Shown here: one piece after another, positions 1,504 to 47,718 of the stretch | Layout of the letters: every line of letters begins with the position of its first letter | Position numbering within the stretch: position 1 is the first letter of the stretch | Origin: a virus | Length of the DNA stretch: 48,593 nt | Direction: 5' to 3' (one strand) | UHGV virus genome: UHGV-1371021 | Notes under the pieces: generated by a model | Seen by the model: the letters and a program-made list of their open reading frames with translations, nothing else | What the model was told of the DNA's origin: nothing | The model's database searches: none | Made by a program: the position numbers and the translations under genes

Positions 1504-1518
1504 GCAACTAACCTTTGT

Positions 1519-1547
1519 TGATGTTTCTACGTCAGTTAGCTTATACT
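1519..1547 (+). promoter_or_regulatory. sigma70-like promoter TTGATG-N17-TTATAC upstream of the primase gene
   Basis: Hexamers with 17-bp spacing about 30 nt upstream of ATG 1578. Overlaps a tctacgtca motif. Confidence 0.4.
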
Positions 1548-1577
1548 CAATCTACACCAACAATCAAGGGTCAATTT

Positions 1578-2531
1578 ATGAGATACGACTGGAAAGACAT
1601 TGAGCCAAAAATGATCGGAAACTGGCAGGCCGCCATCATGTCTATCGTCAATGTGGATAGCAGAGTTTTCAATGGCAAGCACCAGCCATGCCCGTCATGT
1701 CTTGGCAAAGACAGGTATCGCTTTGATGACAACTTCGAAACAAAAGGCGATGGCGGTGCAATCTGCAATCAGTGCGGTTCCGGCAGCGGAATGAACTGGC
1801 TGATGAAACTCTCCGGCATGAACTTTCCCGAAGCACTTGAGGCGCTAGGTGGATTCCTGAATATGCACCCACGCGAAAAGCTGGAGGCAATCAGGAAGGA
1901 GTTACCGAAGATAAATTACAACGATGACTTCATCACCGAACAGGAAGTCGCCGCAATCATGGCTAAAACAACGCGTGTCGCAATGAATGAGTGGACTTTG
2001 ATAAATGGTATTGGTTGCGACATTAACGTCGTCAGAGGTAAATCTGGGGAGCTTATTGCTGTTGAACTGATGCGTGCTGACACAATGAAGCCGTGCAACG
2101 TGGCATTCATTGGCATGGATGATTATTCATTCAGAACGTTTTTCCGTGCTGGATACGACAAAGACTCAGCTATCAACGGAAAGCTCACGCGCGGAGCGAT
2201 AAGCCCAATCGGAGAAGACAACGGAAAGTTCATTTACCTGGTATCTGATTATGCCGATGCGTGGAAGTGCCATTACTTCACTGGCGCTCATGTCTGGTGC
2301 TGCTGGTCGCCGGAAAATATGTGGGAAGTGGTGCGTTCTGTTAGCGATGAGACGAAAGCACGGTTACGCTGCATAGTTAATTATAAATTTGACGAACTTT
2401 GCGCTGCGGAAAACGCAGGACTACCGGTGATGCTGCCTGATGATGCTGACACAATCAGGATGGCAAAGAGAATCAGGAGAAAAATTTATGACGCTGGCGA
2501 GTTGATAGGTAAAATGTCAGTAAGCAGATAA
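1578..2531 (+). CDS. DNA primase (zinc-ribbon primase-helicase-type Zn-binding domain plus TOPRIM-like region)
   Basis: CPSC...CNQC zinc ribbon (KDRYRFDD...GDGGAICNQCG). AAGGG RBS 7 nt upstream of ATG 1578. Divergent from the helicase gene. The upstream in-frame ATG at 1515 lacks an RBS. Confidence 0.65.
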   Translation: MRYDWKDIEPKMIGNWQAAIMSIVNVDSRVFNGKHQPCPSCLGKDRYRFDDNFETKGDGGAICNQCGSGSGMNWLMKLSGMNFPEALEALGGFLNMHPREKLEAIRKELPKINYNDDFITEQEVAAIMAKTTRVAMNEWTLINGIGCDINVVRGKSGELIAVELMRADTMKPCNVAFIGMDDYSFRTFFRAGYDKDSAINGKLTRGAISPIGEDNGKFIYLVSDYADAWKCHYFTGAHVWCCWSPENMWEVVRSVSDETKARLRCIVNYKFDELCAAENAGLPVMLPDDADTIRMAKRIRRKIYDAGELIGKMSVSR

Positions 2532-2632: not shown

Positions 2633-2830
2633 TTAAACATCATCATAACACCAATATGCAACACGCATTATTTCAACCAAATCATTTGATGATAAAAACT
2701 TATTGCCATTATAAATTGCGTGGATTCTTTCACCATCAACAGTTAATGCCACAACATTTCGTCCTATTTGTGGTCTCCACAGATAGCAATCAAACCATTC
2801 AACATCATACCAATCATCTTCTGGAATCAT
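2633..2830 (-). CDS. hypothetical protein (65 aa)
   Basis: ATGA start/stop overlap with the upstream gene indicates translational coupling. No recognisable domain. Confidence 0.5.
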   Translation of the reverse strand: MIPEDDWYDVEWFDCYLWRPQIGRNVVALTVDGERIHAIYNGNKFLSSNDLVEIMRVAYWCYDDV

Positions 2831-4380
2831 TTCAACCTCGGATTAATGTGGACAGTATTACCAATAAAAACGCAGTAACCATCCTCTTCAAGTGATGGTA
2901 ATACACTTGATCTGAGTCGGTCATAAATTTTAGGTATACCTTTGAATGGTCGCACGTTTTTAAGTGAATCATAAAGCCACTTCACCGTTACGTTTGTTTT
3001 TCCTTTCTGAGCGGCAGAGCGTAGCTTTTCGGCAACAACATCAAATTCAGAACGCTCGCCAGCATATCCATTTGATTCCACGGCGTCGGTGAATGTTTTT
3101 GTCAGTGCGTCATAAACACTGATAGCTCGACTAATTTCATTCTCACCGATAATCTTTGAACGCTTTCCTCCATCGCACCAGTTTTCAGCAGCGTGAAATA
3201 TTGCTGCCAGACGGATTATTTGCTTATCAGCTTTACCCATCGCGCCACGAAGAAGAACGTGGTCCCACTTACCGCCGGGAAGGAAGTTTTTCTCCCACTG
3301 ATTTCGTAACAGGCCGATCATTCTTGCTGAGTCATTGTGAAGCGTCAGTTTTGTTTTTTCTGCTGACACAACATTATGTATAAATCTTGCATATTCCGAC
3401 CTCAAGCTGTCTGGCATTGGCTTGCTTACAGGGCAATCATTAACCATGTCCCAGTGTTCGCGATAGCCAAGCATTGATTGCTCGCGCAACATCAGGAAAC
3501 GCTCAGAAAGCCCGTTACCCCTGTCGCCAGCGGCAAGAATGGCATCAATACTTTCATCCTGCGCAATCACACTTATGTTTCCAAGAACATAACCAGATGA
3601 AACGCCACGACCAACACGAGCAGAACCAATAAATCCACCATCCCAGCCCTTCAGGATTACTTCGGCGTTTGCCTTTCCACCTTCTTTTCCGTAAGAAAGG
3701 CCAAGGCAGGTGTTAAGAACGCTTGCCTCGTCACTTATCAGATTAAAAAAACCACCTTCATGAATGGCCTGATGCTGGACAGCCTCCGGCGTTGCATCCG
3801 TCAGTGGATATGTAATCGTATAAAGCTCATCCAGCTTCTCCTTTTCGCGAGCAATATCGTCGCCGATTAGTGCCTTTGCATTCTGGTTGCTGGCCTCCTT
3901 GTATGCCTTCATCAACTCTTCAATGCGAAGATTTATTTTTATGATCTGCTTTTCCATATTTTTGGAAAGGTTGTCATATTCAATCTTCACCGGATTCATA
4001 TGCATTGAGTTGATAGCGGTTTTCCCTGCTGATGGAGGCTGAGAAGTAACCACGTAAAGAGAAACTGGAAGTTCTGAATGGTAATACTCAACGCTAAAGT
4101 TTCTCGTCATTGCGCTGGCAACGCACCCAAGTAAATGCATGAACGATGTATTTATTGGGAACTGAACGGCACGAGCTGCAGCGATTGCATAACGAGACAG
4201 CAAATCAGTACGGTGCTCACTGGTGAGTTCTGTTTCTGAGTACGTTACATCACGCTCCTTGCCTTCCTTGATGTCAAGCCACATGTTTGAGCTTGGTGTC
4301 ATGCCATGATGGAAGGCAACACGAGCCGGAGATACTTTTAACTCCCTTGCTTCATTGAAGATATCTTGCGCTGTGATCAT
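2827..4380 (-). CDS. replication-associated protein, DUF3987-like (primase/helicase-associated family, tentative)
   Basis: 517-aa ORF adjacent to the primase. P-loop-like PPSAGKT. Family assignment is from memory of DUF3987 architecture and is not verified. Confidence 0.6.
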   Translation of the reverse strand: MITAQDIFNEARELKVSPARVAFHHGMTPSSNMWLDIKEGKERDVTYSETELTSEHRTDLLSRYAIAAARAVQFPINTSFMHLLGCVASAMTRNFSVEYYHSELPVSLYVVTSQPPSAGKTAINSMHMNPVKIEYDNLSKNMEKQIIKINLRIEELMKAYKEASNQNAKALIGDDIAREKEKLDELYTITYPLTDATPEAVQHQAIHEGGFFNLISDEASVLNTCLGLSYGKEGGKANAEVILKGWDGGFIGSARVGRGVSSGYVLGNISVIAQDESIDAILAAGDRGNGLSERFLMLREQSMLGYREHWDMVNDCPVSKPMPDSLRSEYARFIHNVVSAEKTKLTLHNDSARMIGLLRNQWEKNFLPGGKWDHVLLRGAMGKADKQIIRLAAIFHAAENWCDGGKRSKIIGENEISRAISVYDALTKTFTDAVESNGYAGERSEFDVVAEKLRSAAQKGKTNVTVKWLYDSLKNVRPFKGIPKIYDRLRSSVLPSLEEDGYCVFIGNTVHINPRLK

Positions 4381-4653
4381 TTAAACCTCGTACTCTGTTT
4401 CAAATTTCTCATGAGGATTTTCTGATAACCATTCCTTGGCTCTCAAAACTGCAGCGTTTGCTTCCTCTGCCGTTTCAAACATACCAAGCTCATATCTTTT
4501 CTTGAGTACCATCACTCTCGCTCTGAATTTTTTTGATGCCTTGTGGTAATCAACACCGTAGTATCCAGTGGTTGATTTTGATGATGCAACCCACCCAGCA
4601 CCACGACCTTGCTTGTTTAATTTACGCTTTAACAATACGCCATGATTGCTCAT
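4381..4653 (-). CDS. stand-alone AP2-domain DNA-binding protein (90 aa)
   Basis: GYYGV.YHK..KKFRARV....K...LG.F.T.EEA..A pattern typical of AP2 domains found in HNH homing endonucleases. First gene of the leftward operon, immediately next to the palindromic repeats. Confidence 0.6.
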   Translation of the reverse strand: MSNHGVLLKRKLNKQGRGAGWVASSKSTTGYYGVDYHKASKKFRARVMVLKKRYELGMFETAEEANAAVLRAKEWLSENPHEKFETEYEV

Positions 4654-4749
4654 TTCCGCTCCAAAATCAATTATTTCCCCAAAAGACTACCACCAATTCC
4701 CCAGCATTGCAACACAACCAAAAGCGCCAAAAGGGGTAAATTGGGTTAA

Positions 4750-4774
4750 CGTGGGGCAACCAACCTGCCCCACG
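4750..4774. repeat. perfect 25-bp palindrome CGTGGGGCA-ACCAACC-TGCCCCACG (copy 1)
   Basis: Exact inverted repeat with 9-bp arms and a 7-nt centre. Identical copy at 4981..5005. Confidence 0.9.
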
Positions 4775-4775
4775 G

Positions 4776-4979
4776 AACTTTACTCTAAGTATATGTAATA
4801 TAATAAAATTATTATTATTTGGGTTAATGGGTAATATTATTATTCATATTATAGATAGTAATTAACATAATATTAACAAATGGATTATTTGAATATATTT
4901 ATAAGGGGATGGGTATGAAATCTGCCCCTTTTACCCACGAAAAATAAAAAACATTCAAATCAATGATTTACGATGAAAA
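4776..4979. other. AT-rich ~200-bp spacer between the palindromes, a candidate DNA unwinding element or origin core
   Basis: Very AT-rich, no ORF above 15 codons. Contains degenerate TGCCCC/ACCCACG half-sites at 4925..4941. Confidence 0.45.
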
Positions 4980-4980
4980 A

Positions 4981-5036
4981 CGTGGGGCAACCAACCTGCC
5001 CCACGACCTGCCCCACGGGCAAAAATTTACCCCACG
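4981..5036. repeat. palindrome copy 2 followed by direct repeats of the ACCTGCCCCACG half-site (iteron-like cluster)
   Basis: 4981..5005 is identical to 4750..4774. 5006..5017 repeats ACCTGCCCCACG. 5030..5036 is CCCCACG again. Confidence 0.85.
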
Positions 5037-5059
5037 AGCACGTTTTTAACGCGTTCATG

Positions 5060-5088
5060 TTGACGTAGAATCATCGTTGATGTAGATT
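5060..5088 (+). promoter_or_regulatory. early rightward promoter TTGACG-N17-TAGATT
   Basis: Near-consensus hexamers with 17-bp spacing, about 30 nt upstream of the first early gene at 5119. Confidence 0.55.
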
Positions 5089-5118
5089 GAACTCATCGAA
5101 ACAAACGAGGGTGAAGAG

Positions 5119-5334
5119 ATGAGTAATAAAAATCCGAGTTTCAGCGCATCGATGAAAAGCAAAAGTGGTGATGACATCATGATTTCAGCCAAGTTTAACC
5201 GTGTAGAGATGGAGGCTGAGAATGACTTCATGTTTATGACAACGGAACAGGCAATCGAACTTGCAGGAATTCTTGTATCAGCTGCCGAAGTAGCAAATGA
5301 GCAGTTAGGGTTAATGCAGCAACAGAAAAACTAA
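5119..5334 (+). CDS. hypothetical early protein (71 aa)
   Basis: ORF with a GAGGG RBS. First gene after the promoter. Confidence 0.55.
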   Translation: MSNKNPSFSASMKSKSGDDIMISAKFNRVEMEAENDFMFMTTEQAIELAGILVSAAEVANEQLGLMQQQKN

Positions 5335-5348
5335 ATGAGGAATCAGCG

Positions 5349-5495
5349 ATGAAAAGCAAAGACCGCGAAGAATTTGAAGATGCACAAGCCATGGCACGCA
5401 TTGCAGTTAACCGCGCAAACAACAGCATCCCAGCAGAAGCATTCTGGAACGCAGCAATGCAGGCTTTAATCTCAGCGTATGGGTTAAGCAAATGA
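5349..5495 (+). CDS. hypothetical small protein (48 aa)
   Basis: ATG with a GAGGA RBS. Below the track cutoff. Confidence 0.4.
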   Translation: MKSKDREEFEDAQAMARIAVNRANNSIPAEAFWNAAMQALISAYGLSK

Positions 5496-5587
5496 CAGGA
5501 GCAGCATTCGAGCTTATCGCCAGTCTGGTTATCGTGGCATTCATCATTATCGCAGTGGCAGTTTCTAAATCAGGTTATAAGGAGTAA
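5492..5587 (+). CDS. small hydrophobic peptide (31 aa, single TM)
   Basis: ATGA overlap with the upstream stop. LIASLVIVAFIIIAVAV. Confidence 0.3.
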   Translation: MTGAAFELIASLVIVAFIIIAVAVSKSGYKE

Positions 5588-9333: not shown

Positions 9334-9478
9334 TGAAGCAAATAAATATAAATCAAAATGTGATGAGGTGCTATTGCCACGCAACAGCAGTAGTCGCGGC
9401 GTTACATTTGATAAAGCAATGACGGATGAAGAGGTGATGGATGTTTTGCAGGGGTTAATCAATGGCTCGTAAACGCCT
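9326..9478 (+). CDS. hypothetical small protein (50 aa) between the terminase genes
   Basis: Overlaps both neighbouring genes. Acidic. Confidence 0.35.
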
Positions 9479-10883
9479 ATCAGCCCTGGCAATAGAAAAG
9501 CTGGAGGCGCAGGTTGATGATGTGCTGACTGAAGTTGCTGAGTCAGCCATTTTCGGCATCTGTGATATGCAGAAGAGCGTCGTTAAGCGCCTCAGAATGA
9601 CCGCTACAGGCGTGGAGGATGTTACCCATGCAACCACGCAGGCAGACCATTTAATCCCCGCAAAACTGGAGAGGCTGCTTTATCCGAAGCCATGGAAGGT
9701 TGTATATGGCGGCCGTGGTTCGGCAAAGACTCGCACGGTGTCGACAATCCTTACTGAGTCGGCAAGATTCAAATCTGAACGTATCGGGTGCTTCCGCGAG
9801 ATTCAGCAATCAATTGAAGACTCCAGCTATCAGGAACTGGTGGATGAAATTGATCGCAAAGGAGAATCAAAAGAATATCGTTGTATTGATGGCAAGATTA
9901 CCCACAAGAAGACTAAATCAAAGTTCCGTTTCCGTGGCCTTTATCGAAACGTGACTGGCGTTAAGGGTTTCGCTGGCATCACGAAGGCATGGATTGAGGA
10001 AGCTGAAAACGTCAGTCAGGCATCGTGGGATATCCTTGAACCTACCGTGCGCAACCCCGGTGCTGAGATATGGGTGACATTCAACCCCAACAAAGAAACC
10101 GATGCCACATGGACGCGATGGGTTGCCCCGTGGCACAACAAAATGGTCAACGGAATTTACGAGGATGATGAAATACTCATCATTGAGTGTAACTGGACCG
10201 ATAACCCATGGATGACAGAGGAGTTAATCCGCTCAAAAGATAAAATGAAGCGCGTCGACTTCGATCGCTATATGTGGATATGGGAAGGAAAATTTAACAA
10301 ACGTAGCGACGAGCAAGTTTTCGGCGGCAAATGGCGTATTGATAACTTCGAGGTCAAATCTGAATGGCATGGGCCATATTTCGGGATGGACTTCGGGTTT
10401 TCCACTGATCCCACCGCAATGGTTGAAGTTTACATCGAAGAATTACCAGGTGGACGGCGCAACATTTATATTAATCGCGAATATGGCAAGGTTGGGCTTG
10501 AGATTACTGATACGCCAGCCGCGATGGAGCAATCATTCCCGATGGCTAAGCGCGCGCGATGGTATGCAGACTGCGCTCGACCTGAAACTATCAGCCACAT
10601 CAAGCGTTCTGGATTCGATATTCACCCATGCACAAAATGGCCGGGAAGCGTTGAGGATGGCGTTACGTGGCTGCGTGGGTGCGATAGTATCATCATTCAC
10701 GAGCGGTGCAAGGAAATGCAGAATGAGGCGGCAATGTACAGCTACAAAGTCGATAAGCTGACAGGGAATGTGCTGACTGATATTGTTGATGCATATAACC
10801 ATTACTGGGATGCGGTTCGTTACGCACTTAATGACCACATCGTTCAGCGCGGTAGCGGTATGCTAATCCGACGCAGGCGATAA
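9462..10883 (+). CDS. terL: terminase large subunit
   Basis: Walker A VYGGRGSAKT. N-terminal ATPase followed by a C-terminal nuclease-like region. 473 aa. Confidence 0.9.
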   Translation: MARKRLSALAIEKLEAQVDDVLTEVAESAIFGICDMQKSVVKRLRMTATGVEDVTHATTQADHLIPAKLERLLYPKPWKVVYGGRGSAKTRTVSTILTESARFKSERIGCFREIQQSIEDSSYQELVDEIDRKGESKEYRCIDGKITHKKTKSKFRFRGLYRNVTGVKGFAGITKAWIEEAENVSQASWDILEPTVRNPGAEIWVTFNPNKETDATWTRWVAPWHNKMVNGIYEDDEILIIECNWTDNPWMTEELIRSKDKMKRVDFDRYMWIWEGKFNKRSDEQVFGGKWRIDNFEVKSEWHGPYFGMDFGFSTDPTAMVEVYIEELPGGRRNIYINREYGKVGLEITDTPAAMEQSFPMAKRARWYADCARPETISHIKRSGFDIHPCTKWPGSVEDGVTWLRGCDSIIIHERCKEMQNEAAMYSYKVDKLTGNVLTDIVDAYNHYWDAVRYALNDHIVQRGSGMLIRRRR

Positions 10884-25867: not shown

Positions 25868-25894
25868 AAACCCGCATCATGCGGGTTTTTTATT
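25868..25894. terminator. Rho-independent terminator (aaacccgcATCATgcgggttttttatt)
   Basis: Stem-loop plus a 6-T run. Confidence 0.8.
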
Positions 25895-25905
25895 GGGGGG
25901 TTTCT

Positions 25906-26754
25906 ATGGCTGTAAGATACGACATATTCACCACGCGGGATGACGGTGAGGTGATGCTTGATGAGTTGATGTCCGCTGACTGGACTGCGCTACAGGTTAA
26001 CGTGATGCCGCTTAATTCATCTGGCGCATACACGCCACTGGTTAGCGGAACCGTGTCCGTGAAGGTGTCGCCATTTGAATCTGGCAACTACTGGATTGAC
26101 GTCAACAATAATAATTATTACGGCGTGGCATTGCGCCTGAAGATAATCAAAACTGAATTGCCAGCAGCGGTAAGTTCGCTGCGCGTTTCTGTCTGGCGCG
26201 CTGGTGTCTCTCCGCAATCGGTAGTAAACCTTCAACCTGACGTGGCGCTAAGCGACATCACCACGCAGTCATATATTGAGCGCGCCAACAAGCAAGGCAA
26301 GCTGTTCACTGCGTCGCGTAGAGTAACTGATGTTGCTGGCGGCTCAAACCTTGATAGCATATTTATCACCGGAGCAAAACAGGTGATATTTAACCAGCGC
26401 ATCATTGGTTACACAGGGAAGGGTGTTATTGCATCAATCTATCGCGGCGCGGTTGCCGCTGGCGGTGCGGCTGCAGAGATTAACAACCCAAACGACATAA
26501 CGCCGCAGGCAGCTACGGCGCAGTTACTTACTGGCGCTACCGTGACAAACATCGGGCAGATGACGGTAGCGGCAACATACAGTGAGGGCAACGCATCGAA
26601 TCAGGGGCAGGGTAACTCGCAGGCGAAACTCGGCGAGCAGATTATCATGGCACCAAATACGACGTATTTGCTTCGCATAACATCACTGGATACTGCGGCG
26701 CAGAATATCAATGCGTATGTGTCATGGTTTGAGGATGATACTTATCTGGCATGA
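25906..26754 (+). CDS. putative virion structural protein (282 aa, Ala/Gly/Thr/Ser-rich)
   Basis: Start at ATG 25906 with a GGGGGG RBS. The track start at 25879 lies inside the terminator. Composition is typical of fibre or decoration proteins. Confidence 0.5.
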   Translation: MAVRYDIFTTRDDGEVMLDELMSADWTALQVNVMPLNSSGAYTPLVSGTVSVKVSPFESGNYWIDVNNNNYYGVALRLKIIKTELPAAVSSLRVSVWRAGVSPQSVVNLQPDVALSDITTQSYIERANKQGKLFTASRRVTDVAGGSNLDSIFITGAKQVIFNQRIIGYTGKGVIASIYRGAVAAGGAAAEINNPNDITPQAATAQLLTGATVTNIGQMTVAATYSEGNASNQGQGNSQAKLGEQIIMAPNTTYLLRITSLDTAAQNINAYVSWFEDDTYLA

Positions 26755-27678: not shown

Positions 27679-27899
27679 TTGTAGTTATCCTTCAGTTCAG
27701 CAATCATGTCATCTATGCACCTATCAGATTCAACATAATCACCACTTGCATTTTCAATGCAGGAAATCATTTCTTCAACACTAAAGTCAGATATGAGCAT
27801 AAATTCAATAATGCAATACATAGCAATTCTGAACTCATCATCTGAGTTGCATTGATTAAGTATATCTTTGATTGCGCACGTTACTTGTTGTTGATTCAT
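27675..27899 (-). CDS. small highly acidic protein (74 aa), possible DNA mimic
   Basis: D/E-rich sequence (SDDEF..EEMISCIENASGDYVESDRCIDDMIAELKD). ATGA-coupled. Confidence 0.5.
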   Translation of the reverse strand: MNQQQVTCAIKDILNQCNSDDEFRIAMYCIIEFMLISDFSVEEMISCIENASGDYVESDRCIDDMIAELKDNYK

Positions 27900-28708
27900 T
27901 TCATCTGCTCCAAAATCGCCATAACTTCCTGAATATCCTTCGCCTGAATCTGGATGAACTCTTCATCTTCTGGCATCACAAAGCCAGCCATGAATCGCAC
28001 ATGGTCAGCATCTTTCAGCAACTCAACCAGACGGTCAACTGGCTTAACCTTTTTCGCTTTGAGCACTTTAGCGGTAACTTTATCCTTGCCTTGCGCCTTT
28101 GCCTCAGTAACAGCTTCGTCGATAACCTTGACGGCATCATCACCATGCTCGCGGGTCACGGCAACAGCATTGGCATAGCTAATCTGCCCTAAGTTAATGC
28201 GCTCCTTGATTTCTGGTGGCACATCACCCAATGACAGATGCATTTGCACATCGGAAACTGAGCGACCAACTTTCTTAGCGATTTCCTCGTTAGTCCAGCC
28301 AAACCCTTTCAGACGCACATATGCTTTTGCACGTTCAAATGGGTCAAGCTGTTTACCCTGGCTTGATGACACCATGAATGCGATTTTGTCAGCTTCGTCG
28401 CCAGTGAAATCTTTGCACTCAATACGCGCGATAGGTGCGCCGCGTTCAATGGCCTTCAATGCGCCAAGATAGCGATGCTGACCATCAAGAATGCGGATTC
28501 CCTTCTCGTCCGGAATAACTGTTAATGCTGGCAGTGGCTGACCTGACTCCCAGCACTGTGCGAAATACTCCACATGCTGCTCATCTGCTTCACGGATGTT
28601 ATATCCCGGCTCCAGATAGATTTGCTCAACTGGCACGAGATAGGTTTTGTTAACAGCGATGCCGTTACGCGTTTCTTTGTCTGAATATATTTTGCTGAGT
28701 GTTTTCAT
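27896..28708 (-). CDS. ParB-like nuclease-domain protein with HTH (270 aa)
   Basis: ParB N-terminal motif IRILDGQHRYLGALKA, plus an HTH segment (GWTNEEIAKKVGRSVSDVQ). Confidence 0.75.
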   Translation of the reverse strand: MKTLSKIYSDKETRNGIAVNKTYLVPVEQIYLEPGYNIREADEQHVEYFAQCWESGQPLPALTVIPDEKGIRILDGQHRYLGALKAIERGAPIARIECKDFTGDEADKIAFMVSSSQGKQLDPFERAKAYVRLKGFGWTNEEIAKKVGRSVSDVQMHLSLGDVPPEIKERINLGQISYANAVAVTREHGDDAVKVIDEAVTEAKAQGKDKVTAKVLKAKKVKPVDRLVELLKDADHVRFMAGFVMPEDEEFIQIQAKDIQEVMAILEQMK

Positions 28709-47349: not shown

Positions 47350-47688
47350 TTATTTTCCTAATGCTTTTTTGATTGCCGACTCTGCTTTTTCTTTTCCGAT
47401 TTCAACATCCATCAATGTTCCATCACGCAGTGCCATTAACAACCACTGGCAAGCATCAAGTAATTCAGGTGCTGCTGCCATTAAATTAAAGTCATGCTCA
47501 ACGCTACAATCCATAGCCCAATAAGTGCCATTAAATTTTGCGTTTTTATTTGAGTATGCAATGTTTCTATCATCATCAAAGTGACAACCAGGAGTTTCAT
47601 CGCACCTGCATTTTGGGTAAATTGCCGCACAACCGCCACGAATATCAGCAAACCACGGTCCTTTTGTACCTTTAAATTCATTTTCCAT
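47350..47688 (-). CDS. hypothetical Cys-rich protein (112 aa), paralogue of 28705..29076
   Basis: MENEFKGTKGPW...AAAPELLDA...AIKKALGK. Start at ATG 47688, 6 nt after GAGGTG in the conserved leader. The track start at 47697 is in frame. Confidence 0.55.
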   Translation of the reverse strand: MENEFKGTKGPWFADIRGGCAAIYPKCRCDETPGCHFDDDRNIAYSNKNAKFNGTYWAMDCSVEHDFNLMAAAPELLDACQWLLMALRDGTLMDVEIGKEKAESAIKKALGK

Positions 47689-47718
47689 CTTCATCACCTC
47701 ACTATTTATCGTTAAATG

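Follow-up and report, generated by a model that had tools for sequence, protein, structure and literature searches.

An array of TGGGG half-sites beside the DUF3987 helicase gene of a siphophage is a candidate iteron-type replication origin

We analyzed an array of short repeats at positions 4733-5036 of the virus genome UHGV-1371021, a stretch of 48,593 nucleotides which is referred to below as the window. The window represents a siphophage that is ~94% identical over the array region to Salmonella phage Vi II-E1 (Macdonaldcampvirus), Shigella phage DS8, IME207, and Escherichia phage EcoIv28_Lewi. The array region is located between divergent genes, with the genes at 4381-4653 and 2827-4380 on the minus strand and plus-strand genes from 5119 on. 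It starts 353 bp upstream of the start codon of a DUF3987 helicase gene, from which it is separated by a single open reading frame (ORF) of 273 nt. An original prediction made from the sequence had interpreted this locus as an origin or operator between divergent early promoters. The diverging flanks were confirmed, whereas the assignment of the primase to the leftward operon was not, as the primase gene (1515-2531) is on the plus strand. The locus contains the following features:

1515-2531, plus strand: DnaG-type primase with a zinc ribbon (Pfam Zn_Ribbon_Prim match)
2827-4380, minus strand: MCM-like DUF3987 helicase of 517 aa, the proposed cognate binder of the array
2830-3075 (residues ~436-517): C-terminal winged helix of the DUF3987 helicase
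4381-4653, minus strand: 90-aa AP2-like ORF with a sub-threshold AP2 match
4733-4748, plus strand: two degenerate direct sites, GGGGTA (4733-4738) and TGGGTTA (4742-4748)
4748-4774: left 27-mer, an inverted site pair with arms at 4750-4758 (CGTGGGGCA) and 4766-4774 (TGCCCCACG), seen in the sequence and by a repeat finder
4775-4904: AT-rich core (84.6% AT), a candidate unwinding element, with conserved blocks including CTAAGTATATGTA at 4785-4797
4820-4834, plus strand: TGGGTTA and TGGGTAA, a pair of internal sites just beyond the predicted start of leftward transcription
4848-4876, minus strand: predicted sigma-70 promoter of the leftward helicase operon, TTAATA-17-TATAAT (10/12 matches in a consensus scan)
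4905-4939: internal four-site cluster, with GGGGAT (4905-4910) and TGGGTAT (4910-4916) forward, and TGCCCC (4923-4928) and TTACCCACG (4931-4939) reverse
4958-4970, plus strand: possible IHF site AATCAATGATTTA, matching the consensus WATCAANNNNTTR
4979-5005: right 27-mer, identical to the left one, with arms at 4981-4989 and 4997-5005 and a start-to-start distance of 231 bp from the left copy
5006-5017, plus strand: tandem direct copy of ACCTGCCCCACG, 12 bp after the preceding copy, with the unpaired half-site TGCCCCA at 5009-5015
5028-5036, plus strand: last half-site, TACCCCACG, with one mismatch, ending 23 bp upstream of the rightward -35 element
5060-5088, plus strand: predicted rightward early promoter, TTGACG-17-TAGATT, at the right edge of the exchangeable helicase-array cassette
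Right of the 5060-5088 promoter, plus strand: small ORFs

The 25-mer CGTGGGGCAACCAACCTGCCCCACG that drew attention to the locus was indeed found in two identical copies (4750-4774 and 4981-5005), which are part of a longer, 27-nt identity (4748-4774 and 4979-5005). The 25-mers had been described as perfect palindromes, but each one consists of 9-bp inverted arms around a non-palindromic 7-nt spacer, ACCAACC. The tandem copies of ACCTGCCCCACG at 4994-5005 and 5006-5017 and a further CCCCACG at 5030-5036 were found as expected; CCCCACG is not the repeat unit, however, since the unit that is conserved across relatives is TGGGG(C/A)A. Degenerate half-sites proposed for the region between the 25-mers were also located (4923-4928 and 4931-4939). 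The array proved to be larger than had been claimed, with ~14 sites over 4733-5036. The core of the site is TGGGG, and its consensus is TGGG[G/T][C/T/A]A. Matches to GGG[G/T][C/T/A]A between 4733 and 5036 number 14, compared to 0.56 expected in 316 bp, in agreement with the view that the repeats are far beyond chance, and no other 316-bp interval contains more than three. All five exact copies of TGCCCCACG in the 48.6-kb window fall in 4750-5017, TGGGGCA has 5 of its 7 window copies at this locus, and in an unbiased 6-mer scan the locus came first among the short-repeat clusters of the window.

The sites form four groups. Three direct forward sites spaced ~10 bp apart (4733-4738, 4742-4748, and 4752-4758) and one reverse site occupy 4733-4772, two forward sites lie at 4820-4834, two forward and two reverse sites at 4905-4939, and one forward and three reverse sites at 4983-5034. 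Forward sites prevail to the left of the AT-rich core and reverse sites to the right of it, and sites are also present inside the core. The two inverted pairs, which are identical and separated by 231 bp, are the strongest members of the array. Direct copies without a partner (5009-5015, 5028-5034, and 4733-4748) possess the same core as the inverted arms, and hairpin formation is impossible for them. The array is very probably one of half-sites for a protein, rather than a pair of palindromes.

To assess the conservation of the array, which had been suggested as a check, we gathered 28 loci via the helicase and aligned their 22 distinct upstream regions to the window (23 sequences in total). 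The architecture is kept in these relatives, including a group whose helicase is just 86-88% identical. Over the 22 distinct regions, agreement with the window is 0.93 at positions in G/C runs, compared to 0.74 elsewhere, and in the distant group the respective values are 0.91 and 0.65 (Mann-Whitney p 1e-7). The motif TGGGG-N11-CCCCA is invariant in 28 of the 28 distinct inverted-pair copies. The remaining sites are preserved as well. The G runs at 4733-4748 are invariant while their flanks vary, the 4820-4834 block is 0.9 conserved in distant relatives, and the cluster at 4905-4939 is kept as GGGGAT.., TGCCCCA, and CT(G/T)CCCCA. The position at 5006-5017 is kept as CCT(G/T)(C/A)CCCAC, and the CCCC run at 5028-5036 is invariant in all aligned relatives. 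The inverted pairs are 231-232 bp apart in most relatives with both copies scorable, and 223 bp apart in four loci. Helical phasing of the 25-mers (231 bp, ~22 turns) was considered and dropped, since the distance is 223 bp in some relatives. A putative conserved micro-ORF at 4910-4948 was likewise rejected, as inspection of the alignment by eye revealed different reading frames among the relatives.

Within the stem of the inverted pairs, five base pairs never vary among the 28 distinct copies. At the sixth pair, 12 copies have C-G, 9 have A-T, and 7 show no pairing, and pairing is absent from the two outer pairs in 11 of the 28 copies. As judged from these alignments, the stem has a tendency to dyad symmetry with no strict pairing requirement. 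The left and right copies tend to match each other within a genome and to differ between genomes, both in the spacer (ACCAACC vs. ACCCACC) and in the arm (TGCCCC vs. TTCCCC). This pattern points to concerted evolution, i.e., copy correction over 231 bp, or to selection on the spacer; concerted evolution would explain the exact 27-nt duplication observed in the window.

The repeat word was found to follow the helicase allele. The phages Bas81 and VSt472 have early genes that are 62-97% identical to those of the window and a primase that is 92-95% identical, whereas their DUF3987 helicases gave no tblastn match to the window helicase and share only 11-23% identity with it when five protein sequences were aligned. 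The corresponding intergenic slot of these phages contains other words, TTTACCG/TTTTACC and GGATAA, and we took TTTACCG as the array word of Bas81 and GGATAA as that of VSt472. The primase, previously named among the candidate binders, is thus not the specificity partner, since it is nearly unchanged while the word changes. In the Klebsiella-type relatives, the primase is only ~60% identical, the helicase is 86-88% identical, and the TGGGG array is retained. Across 40 loci with three helicase types, the association between word and helicase was complete. At least five TGGGG[ACT]A sites were present in 24/24 TGGGG-type regions and none in 16/16 regions beside the other helicase types, and TTTACCG/TTTTACC and GGATAA were enriched solely beside their own helicase type. 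As a side observation, the GGATAA/TTATCC words of the VSt472 array (L032:3140-3500, Skatevirus-type) correspond to the first six bases of the DnaA box, and a role of host DnaA may be asked about there.

The array also accompanies more divergent helicases. A metagenomic contig with a 61%-identical helicase contains 11 TGGGGT sites in the same forward/reverse layout, and Pectobacterium phage Ymer, with a 49%-identical helicase, contains CGTGGGGAA...TCCCCACG and two direct copies of GGTTCCCCAC. Both of these arrays end at a TTGAC-17-TAGATT promoter. In the T1-like contig L052, which has a 35%-identical helicase, the sole cluster found is in coding DNA and is unconvincing as a similar array. In a whole-genome comparison with three phages, the helicase was the only gene of known function that was present in the TGGGG-type genome and absent in the other two. 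An ORF at 25879-26754 (291 aa) displayed the same presence/absence pattern and was rejected as a partner, as it also occurs in the array-less phages Sf11 and Sa179lw.

The right boundary of the exchanged segment is sharp. Array-less records match the window only from 5055-5060, i.e., from the rightward -35 element, and the region from 5055/5060 to 5118, comprising the rightward promoter, leader, and ribosome-binding region, is 87-97% identical in phage records (mostly of Salmonella phages) that share nothing leftward. Within the array, the AT-rich spacer noted in the original prediction was verified, with 77.7% AT over 4775-4980 and the higher value in the core at 4775-4904. Conservation in the core is 0.8-0.99 in 10-bp bins among the relatives, and the -10 block of the leftward promoter is near-invariant. 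The block CTAAGTATATGTA is kept even in VSt472, whose helicase and repeat word differ, and is therefore independent of the helicase type; its role might be that of a promoter element, of a host-factor site, or of a part of the unwinding element. The possible IHF site at 4958-4970 is one of two exact consensus matches in the 48.6-kb window and is suggested by this match; its position is 10 bp to the left of the right 27-mer, and it is not kept in the more distant relatives. A search of 4650-5120 for DnaA boxes (TTWTNCACA) returned no exact and two one-mismatch matches, and no GATC sites were found alongside. The minimum of the cumulative GC skew falls at the array locus.

The DUF3987 family, which is present in more than 1,100 phage records, is classified among the superfamily 6 (SF6) helicases that carry a winged helix-turn-helix (wHTH) domain at the C-terminus (PMC4889955), and one PriCT-DUF3987 protein has been demonstrated to be an active helicase (PMC11724360). 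Searches of the window helicase against PDB, with the single sequence and with a profile, gave no match. An AlphaFold2 model of the protein has a predicted local distance difference test (pLDDT) score of 90.5, and residues 436-517 form a winged helix (pLDDT 85.6). A two-helix HTH-like motif at the N-terminus (residues 3-25) is conserved in the helicase family and missing from the Bas81 and VSt472 helicases; besides the winged helix, it is a second candidate element for binding DNA or a partner. The neighboring primase is a probable partner of the helicase.

Other potential binders near the array were less consistent with the comparative data. The AP2-like protein had been proposed as a binder, but its gene is absent next to the helicase gene in 10 loci that keep the array. 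Its identity is also in part doubtful: an AP2 match is present (E 7e-4), but the score is 20.3 bits compared to the Pfam cut-off of 33.3. We therefore rejected it as the binder. The 90-aa ORF resembles the AP2-type DNA-binding region at the C-terminus of HNH homing endonucleases from phages (PHROG 99 and others) and has no nuclease domain. Close relatives possess it variably, and the Vi II-E1 annotation lists it as a pseudogene. The alternative ORFs of 72-87 aa that occur between the helicase gene and the array were rejected as well, being mutually unrelated and having no homolog in the window. The gene between helicase and array has thus been swapped repeatedly with the helicase-array pairing intact. 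Elsewhere in the window, a ParB-like protein with HTH_ParB and KorB domains is encoded at 27896-28708 on the minus strand; the phage is virulent-looking, and this gene is 80-91% conserved in 3/3 compared genomes.

The array is very probably a protein-binding array of some kind. On the comparative sequence evidence, we favor with modest confidence the interpretation that the array at 4733-5036 is an iteron-type replication origin, which is read by the adjacent MCM-like helicase and doubles as a control region between the two early promoters. The general idea of an origin or operator in the original prediction is strengthened by two observations, namely that the site cores are the most conserved positions and that the word switches with the helicase allele, while its details concerning palindromes, AP2, and primase did not hold. 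In the proposed mechanism, the DUF3987 helicase (MCM-like, SF6) would recognize the sites itself, probably via its C-terminal winged helix. It would assemble on both flanks, open the AT-rich center, and recruit the neighboring primase, thereby acting as a self-loading initiator-helicase in the manner of the Rep proteins of Staphylococcus aureus pathogenicity islands (SaPI). Occupancy of the array might also tune early transcription, because the predicted leftward promoter is within the core with sites just past its start and the rightward promoter is 23 bp beyond the last site.

Several points weigh against this interpretation. Physical linkage within the 2.5-kb cassette could partly underlie the co-segregation of word and helicase, and according to the whole-genome comparison a 115-aa ORF at 47350-47697 is another possible co-varying partner. 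The winged helix resembles MCM/Orc winged helices and bacterial winged-helix regulators in Foldseek only weakly (E above 0.01), and MCM winged helices are generally not sequence-specific. The spacing of the inverted pairs (223 vs. 231-232 bp) is not phase-locked, and the arms display some dyad covariation, with 9 double changes from C-G to A-T and 7 broken pairs, which is compatible with a contribution of a hairpin or cruciform. The well-conserved sigma-70-like promoter in the AT core could alone explain the conservation of the core, and the change of gene orientation confounds the GC-skew minimum. Unlike the SaPI origin, which is located immediately downstream of rep, the array lies upstream of the helicase operon. 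Finally, literature searches yielded no binding, unwinding, or replication data for the array.

The strongest alternative is that the array serves as an operator only. In this scenario, which we consider rather unlikely, the sites would bind a phage protein, either the helicase or another regulator, that controls the divergent early promoters by autoregulation or in an early-to-middle switch, and replication would start elsewhere or without a fixed origin, e.g., by recombination. The predicted promoter with a perfect TATAAT inside the core, two sites at approximately +8 to +22, and the position of the last site upstream of the rightward -35 element would suit such an operator, and the most conserved blocks coincide with promoter elements. 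The phage also encodes recombination functions (an exonuclease VIII-like protein and SSB, as well as a RusA-like protein in relatives). However, no co-segregating regulator gene was found, given the loss of the AP2-like gene from 10 array-keeping loci and the lack of relationship among the other small ORFs. Moreover, 14 sites in both orientations around an AT-rich center exceed typical operators, and if the helicase is what binds, the recruitment of a replicative helicase to an AT-rich element amounts to the behavior of an origin. An origin and an operator are not separable by computation.

It had also been envisaged that the 25-mers might be mere mRNA hairpins such as terminators; in the leaders of early transcripts, RNA hairpins could act as terminators, attenuators, or stabilizers. 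The predicted folding energy is about -19 kcal/mol for either strand (z -2.5 to -4.4). On the minus strand, a TTTTT run (a U5 tail) follows the right copy, which is called terminator-like, and one stem position shows some compensatory change. Nevertheless, neither copy is at the 3' end of a transcription unit, as both are upstream of diverging genes. The T run is missing in 8 of the 23 aligned sequences, and the left copy has no U tract. Three freely varying stem positions are unpaired in 25-39% of copies, and an Rfam scan of 4300-5500 gave just two chance-level matches. The same conserved core recurs in direct copies that have no partner and in single degenerate sites, which, as far as sequence comparison can tell, fits protein half-sites better than a structured RNA. 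By position, T-run conservation, and pairing statistics, the hairpin explanation is very improbable, though less firmly so for a terminator at the right copy on the minus strand.

A genome terminus or packaging site, in which the repeats would bind terminase and the AT core would be the cleavage region, is highly unlikely: four public records of relatives (ZCKP8, ZCKp20p, KpV2811, and Ymer) are linearized in or next to the AT core, but their break points differ (equivalent to window positions 4800, 4823, and 4839), ZCKP8 has no terminal repeat, the large terminase gene (9462-10883) is ~4.4 kb distant, and the word tracks the helicase, while a large terminase of 62-83% identity occurs in 3/3 compared genomes. 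Assemblies commonly break in DNA that is AT-rich and internally repetitive, and the four record ends in or near the AT core are probably such breaks.

The origin interpretation can be extended to a broader model, which we offer tentatively, as a possibility suggested by the comparison. Phage MCM-like helicases (SF6, DUF3987) may recognize their own origin through TGGGG pentamers and load, without a loader of the ORC/Cdc6 type, as two opposed rings on the inverted flanks. Cassettes of helicase plus origin with at least three specificities (TGGGG, TTTACCG, and GGATAA) would then be swapped among otherwise near-identical phages, including the BASEL phages Bas79 and Bas81, which grow on laboratory E. 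coli, and would define replication 'types' analogous to immunity types. The origins of Macdonaldcampvirus/Skatevirus-type siphophages, and more generally of phages with a DUF3987 helicase, appear to be undescribed. Neither the 25-mer nor an origin of Macdonaldcampvirus/Skatevirus-type phages was present in the results of full-text literature searches, the scope of which did not include the Vi II-E1 genome paper. The repeats themselves are partly known, as both 25-mers carry a repeat_region annotation, with no stated function, in the Vi II-E1 record (AM491472); the element is of an ordinary kind that is new for this phage group.

If the interpretation is correct, these phages would gain a defined cis element together with a candidate initiator, and the sharp mosaic boundary just upstream of the early promoter would be explained. 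The three natural helicase-array specificities would provide variants for swap experiments and allow a direct test of the model in E. coli phages from a public collection. The element would also aid in rebooting or engineering these phages, and in spotting assemblies that break at its AT-rich DNA.

Among the replication systems that we compared with the array, those of eukaryotic viruses are related in function only. In SV40/polyomavirus (large T) and papillomavirus (E1), the helicase reads inverted pentanucleotide sites beside an AT tract and forms two hexamers; large T and E1 are superfamily 3 (SF3) helicases with a separate origin-binding domain. The resemblance of the array to these origins is functional. 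Archaeal origins with origin recognition boxes (ORB), which are served by Orc1/Cdc6 and MCM, consist of specific, mosaic replicator-initiator pairs (PMC4010727). The logic of such pairs is shared by the phage array, but here the helicase is proposed to read the repeats itself; a scan of the neighboring ORFs gave no family match to Orc1/Cdc6.

In phage lambda, repeated sites with internal dyad symmetry are located beside an AT-rich region, and nearby early transcription influences the origin. The lambda initiator-origin pair is exchanged as a module between related phages, the iterons lie inside the O gene, and O recruits host DnaB through P. The lambda origin with its O protein is described in PMC7466680. 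In contrast to lambda, the array lies between genes, and the helicase is encoded by the phage itself. In iteron plasmids, one half-site has two uses: direct repeats of it adjoin an AT-rich unwinding element, and an inverted repeat of it close to the promoter of the initiator gene mediates autoregulation. The Rep proteins of plasmids are no helicases and require DnaA, DnaB, and DnaC, and the iterons are 17-22 bp long. Such plasmids, e.g., pPS10, F, R6K, and RK2, are reviewed in PMC4980987. The direct and inverted use of a half-site is common to these plasmids and the array, which differs from them in that no DnaA box was found.

The alpha protein of phage P4 is a primase-helicase-initiator whose C-terminal winged helix binds short iterons in direct and inverted orientation. 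Alpha is an SF3 helicase fused to a primase, and the P4 ori and crr are two clusters that are kilobases apart. In the window, by contrast, the primase is encoded by a gene of its own and the sites form one cluster.

The closest described system, by analogy, is the SaPI origin with its self-loading Rep helicase. SaPI Reps are their own initiators and use a winged helix at the C-terminus to bind 6-12 iterons of five or six nucleotides; the origins have an AT-rich center with at least two iterons on each side in opposite directions, and some SaPI Reps, as well as Cch of the staphylococcal cassette chromosome mec (SCCmec), are MCM-like (PMC9371898). The array differs in being interleaved with early promoters and in having ~14 sites, including internal ones, and it belongs to a virulent siphophage with a helicase of a different family rather than to a satellite. 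In both cases, short repeats (5-7 nt) are arranged in two oppositely pointing sets around an AT-rich center, and the origin or array adjoins the helicase gene. In SaPI, the repeats are read by an AAA+ helicase (SF3 or MCM-like SF6) whose C-terminus forms a winged helix, and the same is proposed here; the repeat sequence is specific to the helicase or Rep allele, as indicated here by comparison. Every sequence-level feature in this description of SaPI origins is found in the window.

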